From Pseudomonadota bacterium (GTDB taxonomy: Bacteria > Desulfobacterota > Desulfobulbia > Desulfobulbales > Desulfocapsaceae), in NCBI GenBank assembly GCA_018821785.1, contig JAHJLI010000039.1, positions 8,878 through 72,877 of the forward strand: DNA of 64,000 nt, in the 5' to 3' direction. This document shows positions 2,463-39,120 of this stretch, one piece after another. Below the pieces are notes generated by a model. That model saw only the letters and a list, made by a program, of their open reading frames with translations, searched no databases and was not told the origin of the DNA. The position numbers and the translations under genes are program-made. How positions within the stretch are numbered: position 1 is the stretch's first letter; each line of letters starts with the position of its first letter.

Positions 2463-3047
2463 CTATTTGCGTTTCCCAAGCCCCATATGAGGGAACAATG
2501 AACGTTTGGTCAACGGCGGTGGATACGTCTGATTGACATACCGCATATCCTCGATGGTGTAAAACGCATTTGGATTGTATTTTTTGATAATCTCAATGAT
2601 TTTACCAAGATTTTTCCTTTTGGTGATGCTGAAGATAATTTTCACCGGCCCTGTTTCACCCCTTGCATCAACACTTGTCACACCATAACCTTCATTCCAG
2701 AGAACGTTGACGAGTTCGTTTGCTTCCTTTTGGGTAATGATCCTGATCAACAGGTTTCCAAGTGCAATTCTCTCCTCAAGAACTACACCGACATAATTGC
2801 CGGCGCCAAATCCGAGAGCAAAGGCAATATAGGTCTGCCATGAATGAAGGTTCTGGATTACTTGGGTCACCGCGATCAACCAGATAAGAGATTCGAAAAA
2901 ACCAAGCATTGCCGCAAAATGTTTCAACCCTTTGGAGATAAAAATAATCCGCAGGGTACCAATCGATACATCAAGAATACGGGCTAAAAAAACCAGCCCT
3001 GGAAGAATTATATACCCAAAGATCGTGCTATCACTAAGAAATGTCAT
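2463..3047 (-). CDS. UPF0316 / DUF5698-DUF2179 membrane protein
   Basis: FLARILDVSIGTLRIIFI...FALGFGAGNYVG...GYGVTSVDARG. ATG at 3047 overlaps the upstream stop at 3044-3046 (ATGA coupling). Confidence 0.8.
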   Translation of the reverse strand: MTFLSDSTIFGYIILPGLVFLARILDVSIGTLRIIFISKGLKHFAAMLGFFESLIWLIAVTQVIQNLHSWQTYIAFALGFGAGNYVGVVLEERIALGNLLIRIITQKEANELVNVLWNEGYGVTSVDARGETGPVKIIFSITKRKNLGKIIEIIKKYNPNAFYTIEDMRYVNQTYPPPLTKRSLFPHMGLGKRK

Positions 3048-4948
3048 CTCGAACACTCTGCATCCCCTTCCGGGCACCCGTTGCAAAAAGAATGAAACTT
3101 CGGAGTGGACCATGTATTCCCACTTTTATCCGAGATAAAATTATACGACACAAAACGGCAGACACCATCGTTGTCTTTGTCTTTAAAAAGCACTGCCGCA
3201 CTCATTTTTCGATACTCAATTTTTGAATCGGTGTATCGGTTGTATGCCCAATCACCGGCGATAGCCACTTTGTCGATTTCAGAGGCTGATATCTTCGCTT
3301 GCGCCAGGGCCTTTTTAAATTGTTCGTGCAACTGGGCAGCGTCAGTTCCGGAATACATTTCTCGCGGAAACTGCGATCCGGCAGCAATGCGCTCGTCTTT
3401 TTGGACAATAAGGGAGAACTCTCCAATTGATATCGGTTCACGAGAGCGAAGCTGTCCTTGAACACTCCATAATTCAAAACGGACAGAGTGTGTGCCTGGT
3501 GACAAACCTTTTGTTGTCCGAAACCATGCCTCAGCCTCGCTCTTAAAGCCATCATCAGGGGGCAGCGGATGAGGAGCAAACTGCCAGGTTGTCCAGGTTT
3601 CCCCTGCTTGCCCCTTGAGATTACCGTTGCTGAAGACATTAAATCGATCCACCTTTTCTTTGCCGTCGATAAACAACCTGAATTCGTAACCGAAATCCCG
3701 GTTTTCCTGCGGTTCTCCATCACTTCCATAAACCGGAGTGTTACCGAGCGAATGATGGAGATAGAGTCTGCCAAAGATGGGGTCGCTCAATTGAAATGAC
3801 TTTTCAGGGGCAATCTGATCCTGGCCATCTAAACTTATTGGTTGTTTTGACCAGATCATTCGCCCTGCGTTGGCCCGATGCACCTTGCTGGTTGGGGGAA
3901 CGTCAGTATATCTGGCTTTGATCCGTTGCGCTGCAGCATCATTGGCCTCGTTTTGTGTATTTTTCCCCGCCTGGGCAGCAACTCCCGCCTCGCCCTTGAG
4001 CCTGGCTACTGCATCTTGTCCGCTCTCTAGCCTTAATTGCACCTGCTGATAAGCAACGTGACCGGGTTCGAAGCTGCCTGTGTAATTTTTTTGGAATTGT
4101 TCAAATTTATCTTGAGCAAATTGCAGGTCGCTCTTTACTCCCTCCAGATAGCTCCCAGGTTGGGAAGAATTTGCAGCAGTCTCGAGACGATGCTCGAGTA
4201 TATTCAGGGCACCGGCAATGGCGACGAGGTCTGCACCCATTTGCGCAGGCAAATCTTCAACTGCGCCTGAATTGCTCTCGAGAGGGGCCGTCGCGTTTTT
4301 TTGCACAAAGCCTGCAGTCATCGCCTGCTCTGCTGTATCGATTCTTTTTTTGAGAGCGATAATATCAGGGTGATTGGGGTCGAAACTGCCTTTGTAGTAT
4401 TCAAAAATATTTTTATACTCCACTCTGGCCTTGGTGAGGGAACCTTCCGCCCTTTCACCTTTCTCGGCAGCCTGATTTGCAATGACCAGGGCCCTGTCTG
4501 CAGCATCTATCCGACGGCGAATGTTTGCGGAGAGATCATTCTGTTCTTTACCCTGCGCAACTGTGATGCCAGGTGGCGTTTTCTCTTCGGTTTGCAGCTT
4601 TTCTCCCGTCGAAACCGCCGATCCGCTTTGTGGCTTCTGGCTCTTGCCTGATGCCTGTTCTGTGATATTTGCGATGCGATTTTTTAATTTTACCAGAACA
4701 GGATGAGCCGGATCGAAACTTCCACCATAATAGCTGAAGATAGCATCATATTCCTTTTGCGCAGACTTCACTTTAGCCGGTGCTAGTTCCAACTTTCCCG
4801 TCTTTATTTGGTCTTCGGCCTTATCAAGTTCCTGGTTGGCAGCATTCACTTTACGCATGATATTGGCGTTCAGATCTTGTGAAAAAACTGCATTCAGGTT
4901 GAAGAACAAAAGGGTGAAAAACATTGCCAGTACTGAAATAGCTTTCAT
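3044..4948 (-). CDS. Secreted hypothetical protein with three N-terminal helical repeats
   Basis: 634 aa ORF with signal peptide; repeated motif YYGGSFDPAHP / YYKGSFDPNHP / NYTGSFEPGHV; RBS-like AGGAG upstream. Confidence 0.8.
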   Translation of the reverse strand: MKAISVLAMFFTLLFFNLNAVFSQDLNANIMRKVNAANQELDKAEDQIKTGKLELAPAKVKSAQKEYDAIFSYYGGSFDPAHPVLVKLKNRIANITEQASGKSQKPQSGSAVSTGEKLQTEEKTPPGITVAQGKEQNDLSANIRRRIDAADRALVIANQAAEKGERAEGSLTKARVEYKNIFEYYKGSFDPNHPDIIALKKRIDTAEQAMTAGFVQKNATAPLESNSGAVEDLPAQMGADLVAIAGALNILEHRLETAANSSQPGSYLEGVKSDLQFAQDKFEQFQKNYTGSFEPGHVAYQQVQLRLESGQDAVARLKGEAGVAAQAGKNTQNEANDAAAQRIKARYTDVPPTSKVHRANAGRMIWSKQPISLDGQDQIAPEKSFQLSDPIFGRLYLHHSLGNTPVYGSDGEPQENRDFGYEFRLFIDGKEKVDRFNVFSNGNLKGQAGETWTTWQFAPHPLPPDDGFKSEAEAWFRTTKGLSPGTHSVRFELWSVQGQLRSREPISIGEFSLIVQKDERIAAGSQFPREMYSGTDAAQLHEQFKKALAQAKISASEIDKVAIAGDWAYNRYTDSKIEYRKMSAAVLFKDKDNDGVCRFVSYNFISDKSGNTWSTPKFHSFCNGCPEGDAECSR

Positions 4949-5065
4949 TTGTTTTCTCCTTTCAGATGCAACGGGAAACTCATTCCTTTAACAATAAAGG
5001 TTATTTTTCCCGCCTGGTGAACAGACATGGTCGGAAATTTCAGTCAGTCATTTTTATATTATAGT

Positions 5066-5140
5066 TAACCCTAGTAAGCGGGATAAGTACCTTCACGAAA
5101 TTCGTTTATAATAAACAAGAAACGAAATTTTAAGGTACTA
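5066..5140 (-). repeat. ~75 bp two-hairpin dispersed element, copy 1
   Basis: Minus strand reads TAGTACCTTAAAATTTCGTTTCTTGTTTATTATAAACGAATTTCGTGAAGGTACTTATCCCGCTTACTAGGGTTA; aligns with 5618-5690 and 15648-15720. Confidence 0.85.
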
Positions 5141-5282
5141 AATTTGTCGAAACAACAAGATGAGTTTGAAATTTATCACCGGCATGGATCTTCCGAAATG
5201 CGTACCACAACTTCATTTTCCAACAACCCGGTTAAAAATGTCCTTGTTTTCCGCCACCGTTCAGACTGTTGACAGTATCAGC

Positions 5283-5570
5283 TCAAAGTGTCTCCCCCGT
5301 TTGGCCAGGATGTCTGATAATCACTGCTTCGAGACCCGGCCGTTGTATTTCAACCTTTTCCGGATTGAAACATTCAACCAGCCATGCCGCCTCGCCATCA
5401 TGAGTCGCGCACCCCGGATAGGCGAAAAATTTCTCGATTGATCGAACGTACTTTTGTCCATCTCTACAATGAACAATGACTTTCCAATTCTTTGCGCTGG
5501 GGTCCTTGGAAAGCATGAATAGATTGGAGTCATAGTCGTGTTCAAACGCAACATCTATAAGACGTTTCAT
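5283..5570 (-). CDS. Hypothetical protein (95 aa)
   Basis: ORF with RBS-like GAGGTG upstream; lies between repeat copies 1 and 2; no recognised motif. Confidence 0.5.
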   Translation of the reverse strand: MKRLIDVAFEHDYDSNLFMLSKDPSAKNWKVIVHCRDGQKYVRSIEKFFAYPGCATHDGEAAWLVECFNPEKVEIQRPGLEAVIIRHPGQTGETL

Positions 5571-5617
5571 CTTCTTTGCCCACCTCGCTGAAAACGGTCT
5601 ATCTCACTGTTTTTATC

Positions 5618-5690
5618 TAACCCCGACAAGCGGGATAAGTACCTTTACGAAATTCGTTGAAAAAACAAGAATAAAATTTCTAAGGTACTG
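5618..5690 (-). repeat. ~75 bp two-hairpin dispersed element, copy 2
   Basis: Minus strand reads CAGTACCTTAGAAATTTTATTCTTGTTTTTTCAACGAATTTCGTAAAGGTACTTATCCCGCTTGTCGGGGTTA. Confidence 0.85.
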
Positions 5691-6207
5691 AACAAAAGGA
5701 CAACCAAGCCCAGATACGTTAAAACCGGTATCTTGATAACAGAACGGAACTGAAGTCCCAACCAACAATTTTTTCCCTTTTTAGAGCGCTTCCGCGCAAG
5801 ATAACACTCATCGCATCTTTTAGCTTCAGTCAGGGGACTGACGAAGCCGCTTATCTACAGGCAATCTAGGACATTTGCACCAGTGTCACAACACTAGAAG
5901 CACAGGATACCACACTGAATTAACGTACCAAGTCGATTGATCCTGCCAAGTTAGTCTGTACTCTATTTTATTACTCACCTGTATGGAAAGCATATTACCC
6001 GGAATGCCGGTCTTACCGTTTTTCCTGTATGGACGTTTTCATCGCAATAGGCTTCAATCCCATAACGGAATTAGTTTGCCAAAGCCGTAAAGAAAAGATA
6101 GTCTTTTCATACTACAGGTGGCCGATTAACTCTGGGCACCAGAGTTTCCAAAATATGCCTACAAAGGCAACCTGCAACCTTGTAACCCTTCCATCAAAGG
6201 AGTAACC

Positions 6208-6756
6208 ATGCGCACGATTCTCATCCGTCTCACTTGCATACTCGCCTTGGTCTTGATGATGTCCTGCGACAAAAGTGGTTCTACAGTTTCAGAGTCAAAG
6301 ACCTTCACGCTGCTACCCTGGATGGAAAGCGACACCGGAAAAAGCGTAACTTTGTCCATTTCGGCTCCCTCCTCCTGGGTTATCGAAAAAGATGCAAATG
6401 ATATGGTCAGTTTTAGACCTCCCGATGTGCCAAAAAACGTGATACTTGGGGTATTTAATGTGAATCTATTTAGCTGTTCGGATTCTCAAAAGAGCGCAGA
6501 CTGCATTCAAAAATGGGCGGATCGTCACTTTCAGGGAGCAGCAGCCGGTGCGTTGCAGCGAGAGGAGGTTGGTGAAGGCCGCATCTGGATAACATCTAGC
6601 GCAGGCAAAGACGGCAAAGGAGTGTCAGCCCGATATTACGTATTTAATAACGGAAACCTGGCAGTGGTTAATTATTTGCTGGGGGGAGAAACACTGAAAA
6701 ATCTTGCAACCTTCAAAGAAGTCGGGGGAACTCTGGCTTTCGCAGGCAACAAGTAA
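6208..6756 (+). CDS. Hypothetical lipoprotein
   Basis: N-terminus MRTILIRLTCILALVLMMSC has a lipobox-like ending; AGGAG RBS. Confidence 0.7.
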   Translation: MRTILIRLTCILALVLMMSCDKSGSTVSESKTFTLLPWMESDTGKSVTLSISAPSSWVIEKDANDMVSFRPPDVPKNVILGVFNVNLFSCSDSQKSADCIQKWADRHFQGAAAGALQREEVGEGRIWITSSAGKDGKGVSARYYVFNNGNLAVVNYLLGGETLKNLATFKEVGGTLAFAGNK

Positions 6757-6861
6757 CCAATGGTATCGGGCCAATCCGGGCACACCATCCTGGCCGAGGA
6801 CTATGGCCTTTCAGGACCATACTCTTTCCAGTCCATTGTATTGATTTGTTCACCGCCCGCT

Positions 6862-7923
6862 TCAGATCTTCATTTGCTTCTTTACAGATTTGATGAAGCG
6901 TCCGAATGTTCTATCCTTCTTCCGTTTATCAACATACGACAGCTCATGGTACTCCGACTCATTCCTGAGCTTTATATAGCTTCTATAGCGATCATCAGTC
7001 AATGCGCCGCTTGTTACTGCGGCTCGAACCGCACAGCCGGGTTCCTGCATGTGACCACAATTCGGATAACGACAATTCTGGGAAAGCTGGCCGATGTCTT
7101 CGAAGCCCTGGTTGACCCCTTCGCTCGCTCCGAGAAGGCCCAGTTCTCGCATCCCAGGCGTATCAATCAACATGGAACCTTGATTAAGCACAATAAGCTG
7201 GCGGCGGGTAGTTGTATGAATGCCTTCTCCTGATCCACTCACGGCCTTTGTAGCAAAAGCGTCTTGCCCGATCAGACGGTTAAGGAGTGTTGTTTTGCCT
7301 ACCCCCGATGAACCGAGGAGACAATATGTTCTTCCCGCAACTAACACCTGCTGGAATTCGTCAAATCCTATGCCCGTGATATTGCTGAGGGCAAGGACTC
7401 TGGCTGTAGTGGTGCTCGACCTCATGGCAGCAAGCTTCTGTTCCAGTTCTTCGGGTGAGATCAAGTCCGTCTTGGTGAGAACAACAATCGGCTCAACACC
7501 CCCGTCTGCTGCCATCACCAAATACCGATCCATTCTCCGCACGTTGAAGTCAAAGTGGCACGACTGGACTATGAATGCGACGTCAATGTTGGCCGCAATC
7601 ATCTGTAGATCGATCTTTTCACCGGCCGATTTGCGGCGCAAAAAGGTCTTTCTCGGAAACACCTCATGAATAATTGCTTCAGTGTCGTTATTGTGATATT
7701 GCACTGTTACCCAATCTCCAACACAGGGCAGGTCAATCGAAGATTCTGCCTGGAAATAGAACTTCCCGGCGAGTTCAGCCGGGACTTCCCTGGTGAGATT
7801 TCTGATGAGGTATGAGCCGCGGTCAACTGCCGATATACGCGCAATATCCAGGCCCTCTTGACGCAAAGCACTGCCATGCAATTGAAACCATTGGTCGAAG
7901 CCCATATCATTTAATTTCATCAT
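6862..7923 (-). CDS. rsgA: Ribosome small subunit-dependent GTPase A (circularly permuted GTPase)
   Basis: LTKTD (G4), GSSGVGKT (G1), HTTT, DTPG (G3), C-terminal CRYPNCGHMQEPGC zinc finger. Confidence 0.92.
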   Translation of the reverse strand: MMKLNDMGFDQWFQLHGSALRQEGLDIARISAVDRGSYLIRNLTREVPAELAGKFYFQAESSIDLPCVGDWVTVQYHNNDTEAIIHEVFPRKTFLRRKSAGEKIDLQMIAANIDVAFIVQSCHFDFNVRRMDRYLVMAADGGVEPIVVLTKTDLISPEELEQKLAAMRSSTTTARVLALSNITGIGFDEFQQVLVAGRTYCLLGSSGVGKTTLLNRLIGQDAFATKAVSGSGEGIHTTTRRQLIVLNQGSMLIDTPGMRELGLLGASEGVNQGFEDIGQLSQNCRYPNCGHMQEPGCAVRAAVTSGALTDDRYRSYIKLRNESEYHELSYVDKRKKDRTFGRFIKSVKKQMKI

Positions 7924-7931
7924 ATATTGTC

Positions 7932-7990
7932 ACCCAACTCTGAACAGAGCGGCAGGCAGCTGTGATGGCCTGAGCGCATGCTCTTCTTCT
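7932..7990 (-). other. Weak attC-like remnant
   Basis: Minus strand ends GTTGGGT (R'-like) just upstream of rsgA; R'' side is degenerate (TAGAAG instead of YYYAAC). Confidence 0.3.
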
Positions 7991-8183
7991 ATTGATACTT
8001 TTTGAAATTGTATTTGATAGCAACTTTTGCTTTTTCTTCCGATGGAAGTGACACAAAATATTTTTTCCAGCCAGGACAAAAGTTAATGTGCCAACGCCAG
8101 AATCTTCCGGCAATTGACTTCGGCTGCTTGTCATATTTTGCTCGTAAACTGCAATTGCCACAATTATTCTCAGCCATTATCAT
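7989..8183 (-). CDS. Small Cys-containing hypothetical protein
   Basis: 64 aa; CGNC...RFWRWHINFCPGWKKY; GGAG RBS. Confidence 0.65.
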   Translation of the reverse strand: MIMAENNCGNCSLRAKYDKQPKSIAGRFWRWHINFCPGWKKYFVSLPSEEKAKVAIKYNFKKYQ

Positions 8184-8236
8184 ACTCCATTTTAAAAAAT
8201 AACCTATTAAGAGACTAAGGCATCAGAGCCCTTGCT

Positions 8237-8299
8237 GCCTAACATATATGTTTCGTTCACTCGCTGCTATCAATCGTCGCATGCAAAGGCCGGTTCGGC
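8237..8299 (-). other. attC-like site
   Basis: Minus strand GCCGAAC...GTTAGGC, 63 bp, with near-complementary R''/R' boxes; overlaps the DUF1835 3' end (PNRPLHAT read-through typical of cassettes). Confidence 0.55.
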
Positions 8300-9153
8300 A
8301 AAGCTGTAATCTTGAAGTCCTTGAGCAATACCGCACTTTCCCATTGAGGTAATCTTTCAGTGGGACCTTCGATCCACACCAGCGGAGGGACACGATCCGC
8401 CAGTCCGTTTATCTTGGCCCAAAGTGTCACATCTCCCCAGAATTGCGGTGGCGTATCAGCCGCAGCCACGGATGCGAAAATTTCCCCCGGTGTTTCGTTC
8501 CCGCCTCGAACTGCGGCCAAGGCAAGACGCTCAAGTCGGCCCAACCCGCTTGTCGGGTCAGGCTGTTCCTGAATCCATCGCCTTACGGCGGCGGAAATCC
8601 AGGGCAAGGGGGCCTCTATCATTGCCGACAATTCCACCAACATGGTTGAGGACTGAGTTGCGAATGCCTTGTCGACAAGAACCGCAAAGCCGAATTGCTC
8701 TTCGGTGACTGCAAGTCGGTTTTTATAGAGGGCTGCCAGTTGCTCCGGCAGCAGTTGTCCAAGACCATGAAACGGTACGATCCCGGGAAATGCATCAACG
8801 CAAAGAAGTTCCACATGCAAAATGCCCTTGTGAAGCAGGCAGGTGAGAATGTGGGCAAGCATGGACTGATCAAAAAGGCACGCGTCGAACCACAGGACGA
8901 TGCGCTCGTAGGTTGCGGTTTCCGCCAACTTCCGGTACTGGCTGCACAGTGTCTCCAGAATGAACTCCCTATCCAAACCTCCTGCAGTGGTTTCTTCTAA
9001 AAACAGTGCTCGCGCGCTGAGAGTGTCTTCATTCGGCCACCCAGGATCCCGGGGTCCATCGTATAGGATGTCGTGCCAGACGAATACTTCCCCGGGAAGT
9101 CCGGCTTTTGCCAGACTTCCTCCTGCGATGTCACCACTCGTGATATGAATCAA
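8257..9153 (-). CDS. DUF1835 domain protein
   Basis: MIHITSGDIAGGSL...WHDILYDGP...IVLWFDACLFDQSML. Confidence 0.75.
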   Translation of the reverse strand: MIHITSGDIAGGSLAKAGLPGEVFVWHDILYDGPRDPGWPNEDTLSARALFLEETTAGGLDREFILETLCSQYRKLAETATYERIVLWFDACLFDQSMLAHILTCLLHKGILHVELLCVDAFPGIVPFHGLGQLLPEQLAALYKNRLAVTEEQFGFAVLVDKAFATQSSTMLVELSAMIEAPLPWISAAVRRWIQEQPDPTSGLGRLERLALAAVRGGNETPGEIFASVAAADTPPQFWGDVTLWAKINGLADRVPPLVWIEGPTERLPQWESAVLLKDFKITALPNRPLHATIDSSE

Positions 9154-9608
9154 AAGACGTCAAAGTTCGAGGAATTGGATGCCCCATTATGAAGCCCCGA
9201 ATAAATTAATTGAGTTCTATCCCCGTCAATCCTCCAGATGTGATACACTCTGTCGATACGTTTTTTGTCAGAACCAAAGCCAATATAAAGGACCACATCA
9301 TACTCCTTTTCACTGGTAAAGAGGTTTGATGATTTATTGGCGGTATGGATTTCCCATGACTGCATTGGACCATACTTCGCAATTCTCGTTACCCAGGCTG
9401 CTGCATACTGCTCGGGGGAAATACGTTGTTTCAAGTCATTGTGGAAATTATCATAGGCTTCACGATACTTTCCAGTCGTGACCAGGGAAAAATGATTTTC
9501 CAACGCTATTTGCATTGATGCAATACTCTCCTGGGTGCTACCAATCATCTTGGTGATAAGCACTGCGGCGACAATCACCATGAGAATAGCACTGATGAGA
9601 ACTTTCAT
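9150..9608 (-). CDS. Hypothetical membrane-anchored/exported protein
   Basis: 152 aa with hydrophobic N-terminus; ATGA-coupled to the DUF1835 gene. Confidence 0.7.
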   Translation of the reverse strand: MKVLISAILMVIVAAVLITKMIGSTQESIASMQIALENHFSLVTTGKYREAYDNFHNDLKQRISPEQYAAAWVTRIAKYGPMQSWEIHTANKSSNLFTSEKEYDVVLYIGFGSDKKRIDRVYHIWRIDGDRTQLIYSGLHNGASNSSNFDVF

Positions 9609-9705
9609 TTTTCTTCTCGAATTTGATTGTTAATTGACTGTTGTATTCCCGCTAAACATAGAGGGTAAAATCAACAACCATGTAAGCATTGGCCGCCTGG
9701 AAATA

Positions 9706-10503
9706 TTATGGGACACAATACCATTTCAACTTATCGAAAACATTGAGCCATTGTTGATCAAACTCAACTTCAAGTGCGATTTTTACATTGGTTACAGGAT
9801 GAACAAAATCAAGTTTTTTAGCAAGCAACATTAAGCGGTTGAAACCAAAGTACTCTCGAAAAAATGGATTCTGCTTATTATCACCATAGTTGATATCACC
9901 AATAATTGGGTGGCGTAAATGAGCCAAATGTCGTCTAATTTGATGTCGACGGCCTGTGCTGGGTTCCAGCTTAATCAATGAGTAGCGAACAGTGTCAAAT
10001 TTACCCAATGGAATTGGCAGTGATGCGGTTAAGAGTGACTGGTAGGCAGTTTTGGCCTGTTGTGGCTCTTTATTTCGGCTGACATTTTGATCACCCAAGG
10101 TGTCGAGATTTTCTTTGAGTGGGTAGTCAATAGTCTCACTGCCTAATAAATGGCCACGAGTTAATGCGTAATATGTCTTCTTTATGGTTCTATCGGCAAA
10201 AGATTGCCCCATTAAGCGAGCGACTTCAACACTTAAAGCAAAGAGCAGAACCCCAGATGTTGGTCTGTCCAGTCTATGCACTGGGTATACGTATTGACCT
10301 ATTTGATCTCTAACAAGTTGTAAAGCGAAATATATTTCATCTTTATCCATATAGCTTCGGTGAACAAAGAGTCCCGCTGGTTTATTTACCGCGACTAAAT
10401 ATGCATCTTGATAGAGTATTTCCAGTATCGGCTTTGCCTCAATAGCCAGCCCTGACTCTCGAGCACAATCTCTTTGGCGCAAATCGAACCTCATTTGATT
10501 CAT
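9706..10503 (-). CDS. truC: tRNA pseudouridine(65) synthase TruC-like (RluA family); start uncertain
   Basis: VNKPAGLFVH, HRLDRPTSG (catalytic Asp), TGRRHQIRRHLAHLRHPIIGD, YGDNKQN; no S4 domain. Confidence 0.8.
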   Translation of the reverse strand: MNQMRFDLRQRDCARESGLAIEAKPILEILYQDAYLVAVNKPAGLFVHRSYMDKDEIYFALQLVRDQIGQYVYPVHRLDRPTSGVLLFALSVEVARLMGQSFADRTIKKTYYALTRGHLLGSETIDYPLKENLDTLGDQNVSRNKEPQQAKTAYQSLLTASLPIPLGKFDTVRYSLIKLEPSTGRRHQIRRHLAHLRHPIIGDINYGDNKQNPFFREYFGFNRLMLLAKKLDFVHPVTNVKIALEVEFDQQWLNVFDKLKWYCVP

Positions 10504-10616
10504 ATTGTTATTTTGGCTCTATTGTGCCCCCCTCTCGAAAACCATGCTTAACATATACACGACAACATAATCGCTTTTAAAAAATTCACTACCTCATCTT
10601 CTGCGACAGACACGCA

Positions 10617-13600
10617 ATGGAAAAAAACAACTACCAGAAAAGACAACGCCCTGTGCCCACCGCAACCCGGGTCCGCATCTGGGTCTATGGGAGTATTGCC
10701 GCAATTTTACTCCTGCTAGCGACGGCAATACTTGTCGTACCACGGTTCATCGATTTCACTTCGATCAAACAGAAACTCCAGGCAGTGGTCACCGAAAAGA
10801 CCGGCGGCCGGCTTCTATATCAAGAAATTGGCCTCACCTACATACCCAGGCTTGCCATTGAGCTGCGCCAGGTCACCATGGTCATCCCGGATCTGGCAGA
10901 AGGCAGAGTTGCGGCCCTGCGCATTTCACCGCAATTTCTCCCTCTGATGAGCGGCAATATTCGCCTTGCCCGACTCGAACTGGACACACCTCAGTTGAGA
11001 CTCGACCTTCTGGATCAAAAACCTCAAGAACCCCCAGCGCAACCTCTTGAATTTGAAGGGCCGGGCAAGAGCCTGGCCTTGGCCGTCGCACCGCTCGGCC
11101 AGGTGATTACCGGCCTGGAAATTCAGGTCAACAACGGCAAACTGGCGATTGCCCAGGGCAAACACAGTCTGGTTGACATTGAAGGCCTCAATCTCAGCGG
11201 CAGAGTGCAGATGGCGGGCGACAAGATGACCGCCAAAATCGATCGATTGACTCTGGAGGAACCGGCCCTGACCTTGGCCGGGGAGCTGACTTTGGCGCCA
11301 ACCACACCGGCTATCACGGTGAATATGACAGGCACCAACATTGATGTTGATGCGACCCGCAAAACCGCTCTGTCCCTGGCAGGCGACTCCACCCCCATCA
11401 AACAAATATTCGACTACCTGCGCGGCGGTAAAGTACCTCTGATCAACTTCACCTCTCATGGAGAAAACTTTTCGCAACTGGGCGATCTGAACAACATTCT
11501 GATCAAAGGACACTTGCAGGACGGCAAGGTCTCGGTCCCGGCCATCGACATCAACTTGACCGAGGTTGCCGGGGATGTGGTGATTACCAATGGCGTTCTT
11601 CAAGGTTCCGGATTGTCGGCTCACCTGGATTCATCTACCGGCCGGGACGGCACTCTTGCGATAGGGCTGACGAGAGAGCACAATCTGTTCAAGCTGGGGT
11701 TGAATTTGAGCGCCGACCTCAGCGAAACCCAAGCACTTCTCAAACGGGTGATACGTATTCCGACCTTCACTGCCGAACTGGAAAAAATCACCAACCTGCA
11801 AGGCACCGCCCACGGAAAACTCACCCTCGGCGACAGTCTGAGCAGCATCAACAGCACAGTCGAGATCGACGAACTGAGCCTGACCGCCGACTACCAGAGC
11901 TTACCTCTGCCGATCACCATCACAGAGGGACAGGTGGCCTTCAGCAAAAACCGGCTCAATCTCGGCAAGCTGGGCGGCTCAATAGGACGATCTCAGCTTG
12001 CCGATCTCTCCTGTCAGTTACTCTTTGACGAAGACCTTTCCCTCGACATCAGTTCAGGTCAATTCGAACTGGACATGGCAGAACTCTATCCCTGGCTGGC
12101 CTCCCGGGAAGGACTCCGTGAGAAGCTGCGCACGGCCAGGCAAGTGACCGGTCGAGTCGCATTGTCTACCTTGAACCTTAAAGGCAAGGTTGGCAGACCG
12201 TCCGAGTGGAAGTTCAACTCCACCGGAACGGTGCAAGACCTCGCAGTCGAGTCGGAATCCTTGCCGGACATCATCCATATCGCCAGCGGAGGGTTTAAAA
12301 TTGATACCCAGCAACTGACCTTCGAAAAACTCCAGGCCACCAACCAAGACGCAGCACTCGTCCTGTCCGGCAGACTCAGAGGCTTTCCTCAAAAGCTTGA
12401 ACGAATCGAACTCGGGCTGGATGGCTCCATGGGGCCGCAGTCGGTCGAATGGCTCTCCGCAAAACTCAAGGTGCCGACACCCTATACGATCCATGCGCCT
12501 CTCACTATCAGCAACGCACAGGTCTCCTGGCAGCCGGACGCCACCACTTCCTTCAAAGGTTTGGTACAGATAGAGAAAGGTCCTGGGATCACCGCTGATG
12601 TCGACTCTCGGCCGGACAAACTGCAGGTCAAACGACTGCATATCAAGGATCAGTACTCCGATGCCACCATGGTCTTTGACCTCAACATGGATCAACGCGA
12701 CCTCAGTTTTACCGGCACACTGCAGCACGAAACCCTGCAGGCCCTGTTCGTCGATGATCAATTCGCAAGTGGTAGAGTGGCGGGAGATTTTACCGTCACC
12801 ATCCCACAGACGGAACCAGCCGAGGTCACCACCACGGGACAGCTGACCGGCGAGAACCTGCATTTTGTCCTGTCACCGACCGACTCCGTGAATATCGCAC
12901 AGATCAACCTGCAAGCAGACGGTGCAAAAGTTACAATCGATATCAACAAACTCCAAAGCAAGAACCTTACATTGGATCCCGTTGAAGGCACAGTCTCGTT
13001 CGCTCGCGACGGGGCCGCTGTCAAGTTTGAAAGTGCCAAAGTATGCGACATCAATACACAGGGTATGTTTTCCTTTGCCGGGGATGAATTCTCCCTCGAT
13101 ATGACCCTGAAAGGGAAGGATCTCGACGTTGCTACCAGCTACACCTGCCTGACCGAGGGCCGAGTCAAGGCAACCGGCAGCCTCGATTTTTCGAGCAAAA
13201 TCACCACCAAGGGGAAAATGAACGAGCTAGTCAAGGGCCTGACGGGGCCTTTGCAGATCACGCTGAGTAACGGTGTGATCGAGCAAGACAAATTTTTTTC
13301 GAGAATCCTGGAAGTACTCAATTTCACCGAAATAGTCAAGGGACGACTGCCGGACCTCGGCGCCAACGGCCTCGCCTACACGACTATAACCCTGACAGGC
13401 AGGTTTCAGAACGGCAAGCTTCTCATCGATAAATTTTTCATGGATGGCGAGACCCTCGGCTTGGTAGGTACCGGTCAAATTCGCCTGGAAGATGAAACAC
13501 TCGATATTCAGCTGTTGGCTGCGCCATTTAAAACCGTCGACACTCTAGTAAAATACATTCCTGGGGTCAACTACCTCCTCGGCGACAGCCTGATCGCCAT

Positions 13601-13760
13601 TCCGGTCAGCATTACCGGAACCTTAGACGATCCCAATGTTACTGTTTTATCTCCTTCTGCGATCGGCTCAAGCCTCTACAACCTGGCCGAACGAACGATA
13701 ACGTCACCCCTCAAGCTGATCGAAAAAATCAACTTATGGGGGAAGGGGGATCAAGAATAA
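10617..13760 (+). CDS. AsmA-like / DUF3971 repeat beta-groove envelope protein
   Basis: 1047 aa; N-terminal TM anchor; beta-rich repeats; C-terminal GTGQIRLEDETLDI...PVSITGTLDDPNV typical of AsmA-like C-termini. Confidence 0.75.
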   Translation: MEKNNYQKRQRPVPTATRVRIWVYGSIAAILLLLATAILVVPRFIDFTSIKQKLQAVVTEKTGGRLLYQEIGLTYIPRLAIELRQVTMVIPDLAEGRVAALRISPQFLPLMSGNIRLARLELDTPQLRLDLLDQKPQEPPAQPLEFEGPGKSLALAVAPLGQVITGLEIQVNNGKLAIAQGKHSLVDIEGLNLSGRVQMAGDKMTAKIDRLTLEEPALTLAGELTLAPTTPAITVNMTGTNIDVDATRKTALSLAGDSTPIKQIFDYLRGGKVPLINFTSHGENFSQLGDLNNILIKGHLQDGKVSVPAIDINLTEVAGDVVITNGVLQGSGLSAHLDSSTGRDGTLAIGLTREHNLFKLGLNLSADLSETQALLKRVIRIPTFTAELEKITNLQGTAHGKLTLGDSLSSINSTVEIDELSLTADYQSLPLPITITEGQVAFSKNRLNLGKLGGSIGRSQLADLSCQLLFDEDLSLDISSGQFELDMAELYPWLASREGLREKLRTARQVTGRVALSTLNLKGKVGRPSEWKFNSTGTVQDLAVESESLPDIIHIASGGFKIDTQQLTFEKLQATNQDAALVLSGRLRGFPQKLERIELGLDGSMGPQSVEWLSAKLKVPTPYTIHAPLTISNAQVSWQPDATTSFKGLVQIEKGPGITADVDSRPDKLQVKRLHIKDQYSDATMVFDLNMDQRDLSFTGTLQHETLQALFVDDQFASGRVAGDFTVTIPQTEPAEVTTTGQLTGENLHFVLSPTDSVNIAQINLQADGAKVTIDINKLQSKNLTLDPVEGTVSFARDGAAVKFESAKVCDINTQGMFSFAGDEFSLDMTLKGKDLDVATSYTCLTEGRVKATGSLDFSSKITTKGKMNELVKGLTGPLQITLSNGVIEQDKFFSRILEVLNFTEIVKGRLPDLGANGLAYTTITLTGRFQNGKLLIDKFFMDGETLGLVGTGQIRLEDETLDIQLLAAPFKTVDTLVKYIPGVNYLLGDSLIAIPVSITGTLDDPNVTVLSPSAIGSSLYNLAERTITSPLKLIEKINLWGKGDQE

Positions 13761-13853
13761 TTTGGATGGGGTTAGTGAAATTGCCATAACAAACACAAGC
13801 CTGACTGAGATCTTCAGCAACTTGCTATTACTCTTGTTATGTTGCGTGTCAAC

Positions 13854-14035
13854 CTACCTTGCAGCAACGCTTTGTAACCAGTATCCTTGATCATCTCGTA
13901 TTTTGTGACATTTCGAACAGATAGGTAAAATTCCACACAAAACCTTATCTTCGCGCAAAGCCTCTTGCAGGCTATCAATCATTTTATTTTTTTCCGATTC
14001 TGCATGAATACGGCGTTGAATTTCCAGCATCATTT
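13854..14035 (-). pseudogene. Fragment of a signalling-protein C-terminal tail
   Basis: LQEALREDKVLCGILPICSKCHKIRDDQGYW resembles the tail of the 907-1515 regulator, but lacks the SHxxCPxC half and has no upstream domain. Confidence 0.65.
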
Positions 14036-14349
14036 CGTCTCTTGCGAGTATGGACACATCCCGATCATCGACAAAAATGAACGTGGCAAAGAACCGTTAC
14101 CAATGGCTCCTCATGAAGCAGAGCGCTATAAAATTCGCTCCTGTACAGAACGGGCAAATAGTCAGTTAAAAGAAGATTGCGGCGCCAACAATGTTATGGT
14201 CAAGGGCACGCAAAGGTATCTCTGCATCTGATGTTTGGAGTTATCACCTTGTTTTCAGACCAACTTCTACGACTATTTTATTAGGTTGTCAAAGATCAGA
14301 TAGGCTATCAATGAACAATTTCGAATACTGCTCATTTTGCAAAAGGCTC
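14034..14349 (+). mobile_element. IS remnant: DDE transposase C-terminal fragment with frameshift and probable right end
   Basis: GHIPIIDKNERGKEPLPMAPHEAERYKIRSCTERANSQLKED, then after a frameshift near 14212 KVSLHLMFGVITLFSDQLL (stop 14284); candidate terminal IR TTTTGCAAAAGGCTC at 14335-14349. IS family not established. Confidence 0.65.
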
Positions 14350-14594
14350 TATAATCATGCTCTTTAACCGGATTTATCTTTATTATCCCCGACTGGCTTA
14401 TCTGTCGGGACAAGAGCTGATCGTTTGGTAAAGTGGATTATTTTCCTCGGAATTTGACTTACAGATTTTGTTGGGATAAACTAGATGTACCAGTGGCAAT
14501 CTCCAACGAAAATTCCCCTTGCACTTTCCACAAACAAGTATTCCCGACCGAATTTAGAGGTGTAAATATAACAGGCACACCAAGGAGGTTTACA

Positions 14595-15650
14595 ATGATT
14601 CTTGAAAATCGTCTCATACTACAAGGATTGAAAAATGAACCATTGGTATTGCTCTCTTGTCATCTGTGGGGTCTTTTTATTTTTGTGATTCCAATATGTT
14701 GCCTGCTGCTATTGTTTTCCCCATCCGTTGAAGCCAAAAATATAAAAATCAGTATTCTTATGGCCAGCGATGTCCGTCAGCTGCCAGTGGCTGGGCTCAA
14801 GAATGCACTTGCCACCCATTCTACCGAAGAAGGCCACACCTTTAAATATGAAATTAAAAATGCTGCGGGGGATCGCAAGCAGCTTGCTACTATGGCTGCA
14901 GAGATTATTGCCGCCAAACCGGATGTGGCCATTGCCGGTGGTGGTATTGAGGCGGACGCCCTGCTCGTCGCTTCGGCAGGAACCAACATTCCGGTGGTTT
15001 TCCTCTCGGTTTCCTCCGCGGTTGAGAGGGGAATTGTTGCCAGTATGGTCAGCTCCGGCAATAATTTCACCGGAATTGATACCAACGACACCCAGCTCAC
15101 AGCCAAGCGCCTCTGGTTTATCAGAAAAATTCTCCCCGATGCCAAAAAAGTGCTTTGCTTCCATGTTCCTTCCATCGTCCCATCGAGGCAGGCACTTGCT
15201 GTCGCAAGGCTTAGCGCCAAAGAACTGGGCTTCGAGCTGCAGGTGGTTGAGGTCGAGTCGGATGCCGATATCAAACGCGCCGCAGGCGAACTGTCGAGGG
15301 CAACAACTGATGTGATTCTGCAACTCCCGGCGGCACCAACAGATAAAGCCCTGCGCCCGATAATTTTCCCCAAAGCCATGGCTGAGAAAATCCCGATCTT
15401 TGGCTATGGCGAGGCCAGCATAGACGGTGGAGCTTTTGCCTCCTACGCCGGCTCACGCTTTGCTAATGGTGAGCAGGCGGCTCGTTTGATTCACAAGATC
15501 CTCAAAGGTACAGCACCCAAAGAGATTCCTATCGAAAATCCAGAGAAACCTGAACTCATAATCAATAAAGATCTGGTGGCAAAACTCGGCATAAACCTCC
15601 CGTCCCGGGTATGGCGAATGGCTGATCAACTTGTTGATGTTCAATTTTAG
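14595..15650 (+). CDS. ABC_sub_bind-type periplasmic binding protein (no transporter partners adjacent)
   Basis: AGGAGG RBS before ATG 14595; motifs IAAKPDVAIA, NIPVVF, GNNFTG, EKIPIFG, KILKGTAPKEIPIENP...LIINKDLVAKLGINLP. Confidence 0.85.
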   Translation: MILENRLILQGLKNEPLVLLSCHLWGLFIFVIPICCLLLLFSPSVEAKNIKISILMASDVRQLPVAGLKNALATHSTEEGHTFKYEIKNAAGDRKQLATMAAEIIAAKPDVAIAGGGIEADALLVASAGTNIPVVFLSVSSAVERGIVASMVSSGNNFTGIDTNDTQLTAKRLWFIRKILPDAKKVLCFHVPSIVPSRQALAVARLSAKELGFELQVVEVESDADIKRAAGELSRATTDVILQLPAAPTDKALRPIIFPKAMAEKIPIFGYGEASIDGGAFASYAGSRFANGEQAARLIHKILKGTAPKEIPIENPEKPELIINKDLVAKLGINLPSRVWRMADQLVDVQF

Positions 15651-15720
15651 TACCTTAGAAATTCATTTCTTTTTTTAGAAAGAATTGCGTGATGGTATCT
15701 ATCCCGTTTATCGGGGTGAA
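15648..15720 (+). repeat. ~75 bp two-hairpin dispersed element, copy 3
   Basis: TAGTACCTTAGAAATTCATTTCTTTTTTTAGAAAGAATTGCGTGATGGTATCTATCCCGTTTATCGGGGTGAA; starts at the SBP stop codon and ends 15 nt before the kinase ATG. Confidence 0.8.
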
Positions 15721-15735
15721 ATATGAGAGGACACT

Positions 15736-18700
15736 ATGAAATGGTGGAATCGCTTGAGTGTCAGACTGACTGTTTTCATCCTCTTTCTGGCAATAATTCC
15801 CCTCGCCGGATTTGGCTTTACGACACTGAGGGATTTTCAACGTGTTCGTTTGCAGTCGGTTGCCCAGATCCACAAGGGCCTTGCCAACAATTCGGCCCAG
15901 TTGATTCAATCATCTCTTGCCGATATAGCACAAGTTATTAATCTGGTTGCCGAAAGCACTGAACTGGAGAGCGCAGATCCAGCCGACAAAGAATGGCTCC
16001 TGCAACTCCTGATAAAGTCGTTCCCTCATCTTAGCAGCCTCACTCTTGCTGAAATCGGTGGCCAGGAGCTGGTGAAGGTGGGCCGTGACACAGTCTATAA
16101 CCAAAAAGACCTCGGGAAACATAGTGATCACCCCGAATTTCTCAAAAAAGAAGATCACCACTCAGTAGTAGGGAAATTACATGCCGGCAGTAATAAACTT
16201 CTGCTGCTCGACTTGTATATACCCTTGTTAAGCCCGATGGACAGAAATGTTACCTCGGTTCTCGTCGCGGAAATCGACATGACAAAACTGTTGAATTTCA
16301 CCACCGGTCTGCATGTCGGAGAGACAGGATATGTATACGTTGTCAACGCCGAAGGGAAATACCTTGCTTATCCCGATCAGAGTGCAGTGTTGGCCGATGA
16401 AGACGCTCTTGAAAATCCACTGGTACAGGACTTTGTCGCCGGTCGCAAGACACTCGGCCCCAACCAGACATATTTCAACCGGTATCAAATAGAGGTGTTG
16501 AGTAACGCCAGAGTAGTGGCAGAACCAAAACTGCTGGTGGTGGTGGACCAACCCATTGAAGAAGCAATGGCGGTAGTCAATCTGATAACTAAAAGACAAA
16601 CCCTGGTACTCTTCAGTGTTCTTGTCTTCGCCCTTGTCATCTCCGTCTATTTTGCGGTCAAAATAGTTAAGCCATTGCGCTTGCTCGAATCAGGGGCAAA
16701 ACTGATTGGTGCGGGCAATCTCTCGCATAGAATTCCTGTTCACAGTTCGGATGAATTAGGAGCAGTCACCCAGTCCTTTAATGTCATGGTCGAGGACCTT
16801 CAGACGACACGCAGCACGTCCGACCAACAGAATTGGTTGAAACAGGGAATCACCGAACTTGATAGCCTCCTGCGGGGGGACAAGTCCCTGGAAGAACTGT
16901 GTACAGAAGTTGTTATTTTTATGGCCAACTATCTGCAACAACAAGCAGGGCTCATATACACCCTCGATACCAAGGGAAGATACAGGTATACAGCAGGCTA
17001 TGCCGTTCAACCTGGAACCGGGTCCTCGAGCACTTTCAAAATAGGTGAAGGACTCCCCGGTCAAGCTGCACGCGAAAAGAGAATCCTCTATCTAACAGAT
17101 ATTCCAGTTGAATATTTCTCAATCACCTCCGGTCTGGGTAACCTGCTGCCCAGGCACCTGTCAATAGTGCCATTTGTCCTTAACAACCAGGTTGAGGCGG
17201 TAATGGAACTTGGCACCCTCCATGGACTTACTGAACTGCAGAAATTATTTCTTGAGGAAACTGCCGGCGCCATCGCCATTATCCTCGCCTCCGCCCGGGC
17301 GCGGCGTGAACTGGGCGAGGCCCTCATGCAAACCAGACAACAGACCGAAGAATTGCACCGACAGCAGGAGGAACTGCAAGCCTCTAATGAAGAGATGGAA
17401 GAACAGACACAATTGCTCATGGCCTCTGAAAGTAAACTGAAAGAGCAGCAAGAGGAGCTGCAGGCAGCCAATGAAGAACTTGAGGAAAAAACTGAATACC
17501 TGGAGCGTAACAAAAAAAATATTGAAGAGAAAAATCAGGTTCTTGAGCAATTAGGTAAGGATTTGGAGAAGAAGGCCGAAGATCTTGCCATTGCCAGTAA
17601 ATACAAATCTGAATTCCTGGCGAACATGTCCCATGAACTGCGAACACCACTCAACAGCTTGCTGCTTCTCTCCCGGTTATTGGTCGATAATAAGGAAGGC
17701 AACCTCCTCGCCGAACAGGTTGAGTCAGCCGAAATCATCTATAACAGCGGCAACGACCTGCTTTCCCTGATCAATGAAATTCTTGATCTGGCAAAGATAG
17801 AGGCAGGGAAAATGGAGCTGAAACTGGCAGAGATACCTTTGGTCGAATTGCAAGATGGGCTTGCCAGAAATTTCAGAAAACTGGCAGACGAAAAGGGCCT
17901 TTCTTTCGAAGTAGCCACCCGAGAAGATTGCCCCGCCGCCATAACCAGCGACCGGCAGCGCATTGAGCAGGTATTAAAGAATTTCATCGCCAATGCCTTT
18001 AAATTTACCAATCAGGGTGGCGTAACAGTAGAGATTTGCCAACCCAAAGCAACAGTTGTCTTCTCCAGACCTGGTCTGACAAATGAAAACACCATTGCCA
18101 TAGATGTCCGCGACACCGGGATAGGCATTCCCGTAGACAAACAGAAGATCGTATTTGAAGCCTTTCAACAGCTGGAGGGCGGCACTGCCAGAAAATATGG
18201 CGGGACCGGGCTGGGGCTATCCATATCAAGAGAACTTGCCAATCTTCTTGGTGGTGAGATTCAGTTGCAGAGTGAAGAAAATATCGGTTCGACCTTCACC
18301 CTCTTTTTGCCGAAAGACGCGTCGACCATAAGCACTCCCAGGACCTCTCCCGCACCAGAGGGGACGAAAAGAGAAAGGGCTCCAGGAGTAACTGCTCTAT
18401 CTCAGCCATTTGCCGGTAAAGACGACCAGCAATCGATTAACACCGTTGCCGATGACCGAGAGACACTCGGTGCTAGCGACAAGACTGTTCTCATAATTGA
18501 GGATGATATACATTTTGCCACCACCCTTTTGCACTTCTGTAAGACCAAAGGTTTTAAGGTGCTGATTGCACTCAGCGGCGAAGAAGGCCTGAAATTTGCC
18601 GAAGAATATCAACCAAAAGCGATCATTCTCGATATCAATCTCCCTGGAATCGATGGTTGGGTGGTTCTCGAATCGCTCAAGGACAATCCTGCCACCCGTC

Positions 18701-19650: not shown

Positions 19651-19674
19651 ATTTTACCAGGGGAAAGAGAGTCA

Positions 19675-34500: not shown

Positions 34501-34577
34501 AGCGATTTGACAATCGCCGAATGTCCACAATTCAAGCCTGACCCATCGACCCATCATTTTCTCTCTGGCCAGGTGGT

Positions 34578-34622
34578 TTGGTGGTGTGGTAGCCGGGGGA
34601 ATTTCTCCCCCGGCTACCCAAT
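34578..34622 (+). mobile_element. Group IIC intron 3'-end remnant (end of DV + DVI)
   Basis: TTGGTGGTGTGG...GCCGGGGGAATTTCTCCCCCGGCTACCCAAT; near-identical to 36335-36379. Confidence 0.7.
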
Positions 34623-34774
34623 TGGTCTTCCGGCCGTAAGGATTCTGCTTCACAACGCCTTCTTCACGTCGTAACCGCACTCGCGATCGACCGGGTCACA
34701 GAACGCACGACTATCGTCGACGCTTGGCTCACTCACAGGACATCGGTGGTCTCCATCAAAAGCACAGGAGGCAC

Positions 34775-36379: not shown

Positions 36380-36414
36380 TGTCTTTTGTCTAACTAAATG
36401 ATATCGAAAACCTT

Positions 36415-39044: not shown

Positions 39045-39120
<76 letters not shown>

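Follow-up and report, generated by a model that had tools for sequence, protein, structure and literature searches.

Here we describe a family of short two-hairpin repeats, three copies of which lie in a 64,000-nt stretch of contig JAHJLI010000039.1 (the window; coordinates without a locus name are positions within it) that comes from a biofilm metagenome. Filled and empty sites show that copies inserted precisely at TTA(G) and that the empty site keeps a single TTA(N). Copies have accumulated between genes in either orientation, have been amplified in a genome-specific manner and have frequently landed on the end TTA of another copy. The three window sequences are very probably copies of a new non-autonomous mobile repeat that resembles repetitive extragenic palindromes (REPs) and bacterial interspersed mosaic elements (BIMEs), or miniature inverted-repeat transposable elements (MITEs). 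The family appears to consist of short non-coding, non-autonomous repeats that would be mobile across Desulfobulbales and some related bins, presumably moved in trans. It is apparently undescribed so far: we found no published paper with the element sequence, and none that connects Desulfobulbales to MITEs or to REP-associated tyrosine transposases (RAYTs).

The window copies all belong to the subfamily termed T1 (see below). They and the parts of copy 3 are located as follows.

5065..5141, minus strand: copy 1, covariance-model score 85.8 bits.
5617..5691, minus strand: copy 2, covariance-model score 83 bits.
15647..15720, plus strand: copy 3, with a short 3′ hairpin; covariance-model score 76.8 bits, nhmmer E = 8e-15.
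15647-15650, plus strand: 5′ TTAG of copy 3.
About 15649-15699, plus strand: hairpin 1 of copy 3.
15701-15717, plus strand: hairpin 2 of copy 3, ATCCCG-TTTAT-CGGGGT.

A reading of the DNA made earlier from its letters (the sequence-only reading) had noted three copies at these positions, a long AT-rich hairpin followed by a short one in each, distances of about 120, 48 and 15 nt to the next start codon, and the filling of the gap between a binding-protein gene and a kinase gene by copy 3. All of this is borne out. Direct reading, alignment, nhmmer, the covariance model and an independent repeat finder (which recovers the copies as D5, I1 and I2) agree on the copies, the distances measure 117, 47 and 15 nt for copies 1, 2 and 3, and copy 3 occupies the space between the genes at 14433-15650 and 15736-19650. 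Read and aligned, the copies have in common TTAGTACCTTA, an AT-rich stretch, A[AT]GGTA[CT][CT]TATCCCG, a 5–8-nt loop and [CT][GA]GGG, with a mean column identity of 79% in the three-copy alignment. The nhmmer search of the whole window gave E = 1.6e-16, 4e-16 and 8e-15 for the three and no further copy (the next-best score was not below E = 0.69); covariance-model scores span 77–86 bits. Folding of every copy yields the long AT-rich hairpin and a short hairpin of CCCG with CGGG (energies of −17.8 to −21.5 kcal/mol and z-scores of −2.3 to −3.6, with copy 3 at −21.5 kcal/mol and z −3.6), and the reverse strands fold about equally well. The copies differ at their ends: copy 1 has a weakened 3′ hairpin (CCCGCTTACTAGGG) and ends in TTAA; copy 2 has a short 3′ hairpin (CCCG-CTTGT-CGGGG), ends in TTAG and carries TCA, not TTA, as its 5′ trinucleotide; and the 3′ TTA of copy 3 has decayed to TGA (15717-15719). 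The CTTGTTG found 5′ of all three is not kept across the family, the flanks of which are random.

The extent of the family was established with a search pattern taken from the window copies (GTACCTTA-N30-46-GGTAYYTATCCCG), which was scanned against one genome per species. At least 112 stretches matched (loci are referred to by L numbers); among the matches listed, 111 are true, and L056 is a chance match within a gene and not the element. The covariance model recovered 145 copies in 798 kb of matched loci plus the window. The listed loci come from about 37 Desulfobulbales-like assemblies, and this figure, like all copy numbers and the taxonomic range, is a lower bound. The host labels, used as deposited, are Desulforhopalus, Desulfopila, Desulfocapsa, Desulfocapsaceae, Desulfobulbaceae and Desulfobulbales, together with loosely labelled Desulfobacterota bins; two hosts are cultured isolates, Desulfopila sp. 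IMCC35006 (L044) and Desulforhopalus sp. IMCC35007 (L068). The description 'lineage-specific' in the sequence-only reading is an understatement, the spread being order-wide. Copies are scattered singly along chromosomes, and the element was not found in viral contigs, phage records or plasmid records.

Three filled and empty sites can be compared to the nucleotide. The flanks of L102 (filled) and L057 (empty) are identical in length and the difference is exactly 82 nt; L057 reads ...gaatCT-TTAG-gaatgaagcg, and L102 has the element between two TTAGs. At a TTAT site, L098 (filled) reads GA-TTA-[G...G]-TTA-TTCAATATC and L070 (empty) reads GA-TTA-TTCAATATC. The third comparison involves copy 3 itself, which lies among the following features.

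14433..15650, plus strand: ABC-type substrate-binding-protein gene, 5′ of copy 3 (Pfam PF04392 ABC_sub_bind, E 3.6e-51).
15648..15650, plus strand: TAG stop codon of the binding-protein gene, made of the TA of the 5′ TTA and the first G of the element.
15725-15731, plus strand: ribosome-binding site GAGAGGA of the kinase gene, outside copy 3.
15736..19650, plus strand: hybrid sensor kinase gene, 3′ of copy 3 (Pfam: dCache, HAMP, GAF, HisKA, HATPase and three receiver matches).

On the metagenome contig L113, a binding protein 66% identical to that of the window is followed by the same kinase N-terminus (MKWWHRLSFRLTVF... vs MKWWNRLSVRLTVF...). The L113 junction (...caatTTTAActccgggagaaacacccATG) runs from ...caaTTTTAA through 19 nt to the kinase ATG and holds no element; the window junction reads ...caatTTTAG[TACC...CGGGGTGAA]atatgagaggacactATG. 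Because the orthologous pair lies 19 nt apart without the element, we read copy 3 as an insertion at the binding-protein stop codon. Copy 3 would have landed on that stop codon and moved the kinase start from a distance of about 19 nt to one of 85 nt, the stop being kept as TAG because the element starts with G. Coarser empty sites are provided by L028/L062 vs L024 and by L089 vs L001. The latter was rejected as a precise pair, its divergence being too great to place the junction, and L061/L007 vs L073, tried as a clean filled/empty pair, proved to be a rearrangement.

Each of the three precise pairs can be explained in two ways with equal success: by a 3-bp duplication of TTA around an element that extends from GTACC to CGGGG, or by an element that brings the left TTA with it and inserted just 5′ of a TTA. 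The check for empty sites and target duplication proposed in the sequence-only reading thus yielded clear empty sites and a duplication that shares its fit with an element-borne left TTA. A symmetric duplication does not predict that the left TTA should be far better conserved than the right, as it is. On the chemistry of insertion, trans-mobilisation at TTA(G) is the one point to which we commit.

The distribution of copies also speaks of movement. Insertions are common to genomes with flanks 85–96% identical (L007/L073, L077/L110, L028/L062 and L014/L047), from which it follows that turnover is slower than strain divergence and faster than genus divergence. Subfamilies are genome-specific: T3 occurs only in two assemblies, with a within-genome identity of 0.90–0.92 against a between-genome median of 0.56. 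Head-to-tail pairs of different subfamilies with one TTA in common were seen in L015, L028, L046, L062 and L071, as expected if the element-end TTA(G) is itself a tolerated target, and adjoining copies are head-to-tail in L036, L053, L067, L071 and L015. Among the contigs of the source metagenome, those of the window organism stop at copies, where the depth is 150–350 vs 4–9 in the flanks and dozens of flanks meet; in run X1 the breaks fall around 4962-6000 and 15245-15836 of the window. No empty alleles were seen in the three runs of the source study. Because contigs break at every copy, the family in practice fragments short-read assemblies of these bacteria.

For the counts of orientation and neighbours, long open reading frames (ORFs) stood in for genes. 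On this basis, 108 of 122 copies lie between genes. A copy and its downstream gene point the same way in 49 cases and opposite ways in 43, and between co-directional genes 31 copies are sense and 27 antisense. The neighbours that recur are generic and functionally unrelated (sensor kinases, sigma-54 activators, ABC ATPases and dehydrogenases). The claim of the sequence-only reading that the element always lies sense-oriented upstream of a gene therefore stands for the three window copies and falls for the family; at these frequencies, chance alone would place all three sense upstream in about 15% of cases. A REP- or MITE-like non-autonomous element, one of the possibilities offered by that reading, is the one upheld by the filled and empty sites, the tandem copies, the genome-specific subfamilies, the sharp edges and the at least 145 copies in about 37 assemblies. 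We are accordingly fairly sure that the window copies are insertions and not dedicated regulators.

The element has a size of about 75–95 bp, with certain mosaic relatives reaching about 170 bp, and its unit order is TTA-[hairpin 1: GTACCTT...AAGGTAC]-TTA-[hairpin 2: TCCCG...CGGGG]-TTA(G). In hairpin 1 (about 50 nt), GTACCTT...AAGGTAC closes a variable AT-rich inner stem; hairpin 2 (15–35 nt) has a short GC stem, CCCG...CGGG(G); and a third TTA stands between the two. At the 5′ boundary, random flank gives way to a near-invariant TTA (114/119, 113/119 and 119/119) immediately 5′ of GTACC. At the 3′ boundary, CGGGG is followed by T, T, A and G in 108, 95, 99 and 96 of 119 copies, respectively, and the sequence beyond is random. 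The 5′ TTA is thus conserved at 95–100% and the 3′ TTA at 80–91%, and the 5′ foot is TTAG in 129 of 145 copies. The element ends at its 3′ side as GGTACTTATCCCG...CGGGGTTAG. The left end (GTACCTTAGAAAT) and the reverse complement of the right end (CCCCGATAAACGGG) show no inverted match, so the mobile unit has no terminal inverted repeats, and inverted arms are confined to hairpin 1. Three subfamilies differ in the inner stem.

Subfamily T1 (window type): inner stem GAAATTCATTTC/GAATGAATTTC.
Subfamily T2: inner stem CAGATTATTTTCTTG/CAAGAAAATAATCTG.
Subfamily T3: inner stem GAAATAATTTTCTGC/GCAGAAAATTATTTC.

Hairpin 2 likewise occurs in variants (CCCG-5 nt-CGGGG, CCCGG-16 nt-CCGGGG, CCCGC...GCGGGA and CCCGA...TCGGGG), and in relatives in the listed loci the outer stem covaries (GTGCC/GGCAC). 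Some relatives have small CCCCTCAAGGGGG hairpins nested in the hairpin-1 loop, or have hairpin 2 exchanged for another GC hairpin. The family as a whole is a mosaic of hairpin modules.

Of note in this context, four loci (L026:2782-2917, L042:5140-5260, L013:177-300 and L044:4098-4260) carry (C/T)ACCCCTCAAGGGGG(C/T)AC hairpins followed by TGAAAAGAG; these sit in the hairpin-1 loop or replace hairpin 2, giving elements of up to about 170 nt, and in RNA contigs the same insert appears in the loose ends found at the hairpin-1 loop. On the minus strand of L005:2100-2350 lies a tandem array of at least six units of 46 nt (GAAGGTACTTATCCCGCAAGTCTGTTGGGCGGGATTAAAGCCATAT), each composed of the hairpin-1 3′ arm, hairpin 2 and 12 nt of flank, that is, a minisatellite derived from one module.

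The hairpins are conserved as structures. MAFFT with RNAalifold recovered only the outer 8 bp because subfamilies misalign, and an arm-swap test and a hand-structured covariance model were used in their place. Perfect 10/10 pairing of the inner stem is found in 58% of 114 distinct copies vs 11% after arms were swapped between copies. In the model-fitted alignment, 94.8% of cells pair, vs 85.1% when shuffled and at most 58% when partners are slid; both sides change in 20 of 25 pairs (271 cells). Mismatches outside the two boundary pairs are balanced between G-U (45) and A-C (53), and neither strand is therefore marked as the one that is folded or transcribed. This strong covariation supports a conserved hairpin, not an RNA regulator.

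We tentatively favour, with a modest preference over a DDE transposase, an enzyme that recognises hairpins on single-stranded DNA, that is, one of the histidine-hydrophobic-histidine (HUH)/Y1 type akin to RAYTs or to the transposases of the insertion sequence (IS) family IS200/IS605. The preference follows from the absence of terminal inverted repeats together with the conservation of both hairpins and the hairpin-1 loop with compensatory changes. A search of the sampled DNA with an E. coli RAYT as the query found two RAYT-like Y1 genes.

L006:5228-5893, plus strand: RAYT-like gene, Pfam Y1_Tnp; NF047646 71 bits (cut-off 80).
L017:6445-6990, minus strand: RAYT-like gene, Pfam Y1_Tnp; NF047646 58 bits (cut-off 80).

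NF047646, the REP-associated tyrosine transposase model of NCBIfam, is the closest NCBIfam model for both. Two such genes in about 0.9 Mb exceed the chance expectation for a single-copy gene, roughly estimated at 0.2.

Several observations weigh against a mobile repeat that is moved in this way. Both RAYT-like genes lie 4–5 kb from copies, and their flanks hold neither a copy nor a common repeat. No IS200-like TnpA was found in the loci or the window with an IS200 TnpA as the query, and ORF clustering showed no recurrent transposase family or multicopy IS-like gene near copies. The two hairpins are unlike each other and abut the ends, with no space for guide sequences of the IS608 type. The replication-strand bias, judged by local GC skew, is a weak 71:48 among the matches listed (p ~0.04) and is reversed to 7:13 in the complete chromosome OY781976, for which the origin and terminus were placed from the skew of its loci; these are small samples. 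In both informative pairs, the base 3′ of the right TTA equals the empty-site base (T in L098/L070, A in window/L113), which fits TTA duplication better than an element-borne TTAG. As regards conservation, values at pattern positions are partly forced because the loci were selected by a window-derived pattern, and the covariance alignment, being fitted to structure, is biased towards structure by construction. The element may also have a secondary role at the RNA level, the RNA evidence consisting of undirected metatranscriptome contigs.

The foremost rival to a single-strand enzyme is a DDE transposase with a 3-bp TTA target duplication (IS5/IS1031-like or PIF/Harbinger-like) that would move the element as a classical MITE; hairpin 1 would then supply two 20–27-bp inverted arms for transposase binding and hairpin 2 would be a passenger or an accessory end. 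We regard this as possible, if doubtful. It accounts for the TTA at both ends of the unit, also flanking hairpin 1 alone, for the retention of the base after the empty-site TTA in both informative pairs, for a replication-strand bias that is not consistent and for the random gene orientation. However, the unit that moves is hairpin 1 plus hairpin 2, as empty sites lack hairpin 2 as well, and hairpin 1 was never seen in the loci without a following GC hairpin. Moreover, the right terminus is no inverted copy of the left, and the two TTAs are unequally kept, whereas the halves of a duplication should decay alike. No transposase was seen beside the copies, and a parent IS with such ends was absent from 832 kb of them.

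A further reading adds to that of a mobile repeat and does not compete with it: the selfish repeat may have been partly put to use, with sense copies behind a stop codon acting in the manner of REPs and BIMEs, either by shielding the upstream message from 3′ exonucleases or by uncoupling translation of the next cistron. An ORF of at least 100 codons that lies upstream in the same orientation terminates at the TAG of the 5′ TTAG in 22 of the 145 copies, window copy 3 among them. The mirror case, a convergent ORF ending in TAA opposite the 3′ TTA, occurs in 5 copies, and suitable gene ends are at least as common for it (expected ratio about 0.8, observed 4.4). This skew points to such a use, as do the stop-codon arrangement of copy 3 within an operon and the retention of insertions at orthologous sites where flanks are 85–96% identical. 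At 1–60 nt from gene ends, however, there is no skew (19 vs 25), and a strand-specific insertion step could also give the bias at the stop codon itself; on balance we think recruitment unlikely. From its position, copy 3 should be co-transcribed as two stable hairpins without a U-tract, and if it affects message stability or the coupling of translation, this would be a side effect of the kind known from REPs.

More speculatively, and with no greater likelihood, the family could be a so far undescribed, order-wide class of 'TTA-punctuated' two-hairpin elements. An enzyme of the host, either a single-strand one of HUH/Y1 type or a new one, would cut its modules (the AT-rich hairpin, the GC hairpins and the nested CCCCTCAAGGGGG hairpins) and join them at TTA(G). 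The strong sense preference at stop codons would then come either from insertion that favours the non-template strand or from a use as RNA element between cistrons or at 3′ ends.

The recombination site that the sequence-only reading had also entertained is very improbable, whether taken as an integron attC-like site, a Xer/dif-like site or the target/donor core of an IS110-type element. The same short core, TTA(G), does stand at both ends and at copy junctions, and a small ORF is framed by copies 1 and 2, which share one orientation, in the manner of a cassette. Against this, no attC R″/R′ cores (RYYYAAC...GTTRRRY) were seen by eye, copies are scattered singly with no arrays beside an integrase, no recombinase recurs nearby and orientations are mixed over short distances.

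The possibility that the sequence-only reading had named first, a cis-regulatory RNA (an attenuator or riboswitch-like leader) that controls the gene 3′ of each copy, fares worst. In its favour, the window copies are all sense and lie 15–117 nt 5′ of a start codon, the two-hairpin structure is conserved with covariation, and the element occurs in metatranscriptome contigs. These contigs are undirected and hold T3 copies with many different flanks, and so indicate that copies are transcribed somewhere, or DNA carry-over. Within the window copies and their edges there is no sigma-70-like promoter, no terminator-like site and no U-tract terminator. A sigma-54 promoter was considered, as AAGGTAC-N-CCCGC mimics the −24/−12 spacing in copies 1 and 2, and was rejected: conservation is complete for the GG of AAGGTAC and does not extend to the −12 GC, and positions +12/+13 are G plus any base (T, G, C or A after CCCG), copy 3 having GT. 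Rfam at gathering scores shows only two tRNAs in the window; at E ≤ 10 it gives nothing at the window copies, in agreement with the earlier statement that it matches no recognised riboswitch; and for a copy in another locus it returns only sub-threshold chance matches to microRNA precursors (E 0.015–0.27). Of the two findings that the sequence-only reading had named as speaking against a regulatory RNA, random orientation and a lack of covariation, the first is what we observe, and the covariation is strong yet not specific to a regulator. With orientation at 49:43, neighbours of no common function, an orthologous binding-protein/kinase operon with a 19-nt spacer and no element, tandem and nested copies and a G-U to A-C balance that favours no transcribed strand, the regulatory RNA is scarcely credible.

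Beside these RNA data stands an observation on a different repeat. At L084:1557-1640, about 80 nt 5′ of a T3 copy, lies an unrelated GC-rich palindromic repeat (...GCATTCCCCGCCGAATGTCCCGCCAATCAGTATGGCGGGCGGACTTGCGGCGGGGAGC...) that is deeper than the element in metatranscriptome contigs (up to about 1200 vs 7 in flanks). In a contig of run X7, the 273 nt of L084 between positions 1558 and 1832, which include both repeats, are replaced by 131 nt of other sequence.

The remaining features of the window that concern the copies, and the tRNA genes, are as follows.

3044..4948, minus strand: 634-amino-acid (aa) ORF, 3′ of copy 1, without Pfam match.
5283..5570, minus strand: 95-aa ORF, bracketed by copies 2 and 1, without Pfam match.
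38923-38997, minus strand: tRNA gene.
39048-39120, minus strand: tRNA gene.

Copy 1 is situated between the stop of the 95-aa ORF (5283) and the start of the 634-aa ORF (4948), and copy 2 lies in a divergent intergenic region, 47 nt 5′ of the 95-aa ORF. Exact-sequence look-up gave no record for either protein. The 634-aa protein has an N-terminal hydrophobic stretch that is signal-peptide-like by eye, and repeated 'Y..GSFDP.HP' motifs; a 182-aa ORF at 6208-6756 (plus strand) has no Pfam match. Within 15736-21098, a CheR-type methyltransferase gene (19675-20499) and more co-oriented ORFs follow the hybrid kinase; with the ABC-type binding protein at the head, this arrangement is suggestive of a chemotaxis-like signalling operon. 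A different palindrome, GC-rich and 56 nt in length (GGTAGCCGGGGGAATTTCTCCCCCGGCTACC), occurs twice, at 34569-34624 and 36326-36381 (1.7 kb from each other), and a perfect 32-nt direct repeat (38104-38135 and 38856-38887) is found beside the two tRNA genes. Window genes resemble those of Desulforhopalus, with 83% and 58% amino-acid identity for two of them.

For annotation, the hairpins 5′ of the 634-aa gene, the 95-aa gene and the hybrid kinase are best entered as repeat insertions and not as leaders or riboswitch candidates, and annotation of the repeat guards against false regulatory assignments. The Desulfobulbales include relatives of the cable bacteria and abundant sediment sulfate reducers. 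The family is abundant in metatranscriptome assemblies, is missing from Rfam and breaks short-read assemblies at its copies; a family model would improve annotation and binning, and copies could serve as a strain marker. As mobile DNA, the element is of interest for moving as a unit without terminal inverted repeats, for its clean empty sites and for its stop-codon skew, and the two cultured hosts, IMCC35006 and IMCC35007, make the question of the moving enzyme testable.

Among known systems, integron attC sites can be set aside on account of their cores: the 5′ end has no RYYYAAC by eye, and copies are dispersed. Leaders and attenuators of the kind in Rfam have in common with the element a two-hairpin fold with covariation and, for the window copies, 5′ leader-like positions. 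The element differs from them in having no curated family match, random orientation, no gene association and no terminator/anti-terminator logic, in being absent from an orthologous operon and in leaving the kinase ribosome-binding site outside.

Two further groups are bacterial MITEs of the terminal-inverted-repeat type (Correia/NEMIS, Nezha, RUP and ERIC) and TTA/TAA-duplicating elements of the IS5 or PIF/Harbinger type. Like these, the element is shorter than 200 bp, AT-rich and foldback-forming, has a TTA target that looks duplicated, varies in presence between relatives, and is intergenic, present in many copies and probably co-transcribed with flanking genes. Unlike in these, a GC hairpin that bears no relation to the left terminus forms the right one, and inverted arms exist only in hairpin 1.

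Palindrome-associated transposable elements (PATEs) of IS200/IS605, which follow the logic of transposon-associated and transposon-encoded motifs (TAM/TEM; PMC10055086), also have no terminal inverted repeats, carry end hairpins, have no ORF and, as presumed for our element, are moved in trans; they insert beside a given tetranucleotide and have a motif resembling it at their opposite end (PMC10055086). By contrast, the end hairpins of our element are dissimilar and lie 0–1 nt from the ends, too close for guide sequences to fit in. A lagging-strand bias does not clearly emerge, the loci and the window yielded no tnpA or tnpB whose ends match, and the two informative empty sites fit TTA duplication better than duplication-free insertion.

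The closest behavioural analogy is with the REPs, BIMEs and REP doublets forming hairpins (REPINs) of E. coli, Pseudomonas and Stenotrophomonas, which are moved by a single-copy RAYT (TnpA-REP, a Y1 enzyme). REPs are palindromes of 20–40 nt with a GT[AG]G foot (PMC3733652, PMC6006769), and neither Desulf* nor a TTAG foot is mentioned in the REP survey (PMC3733652) or the HUH phylogenomics study (PMC6006769). The foot of our element, TTAG, is one base away from the GTAG foot of REPs; its hairpin 1 measures about 50 nt and is AT-rich, whereas REPs are 20–40 nt and GC-rich. Its two hairpins, unlike each other, stand in direct order, and copies that occur in multiples run head-to-tail instead of forming inverted doublets or alternating as in REPINs and BIMEs. 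TTA at both ends and clean filled/empty sites also set the element apart from REPs, and, unlike in a REPtron, neither of the two RAYT-like genes inspected is flanked by copies. What the two systems have in common is nevertheless extensive: short non-coding palindromic repeats, in high copy number and intergenic, with a tetranucleotide foot against a hairpin; mosaics and clusters of hairpin modules; genome-specific subfamilies; presumed mobility in trans; probable co-transcription with neighbouring genes; and RAYT-like genes in at least two of the host genomes.

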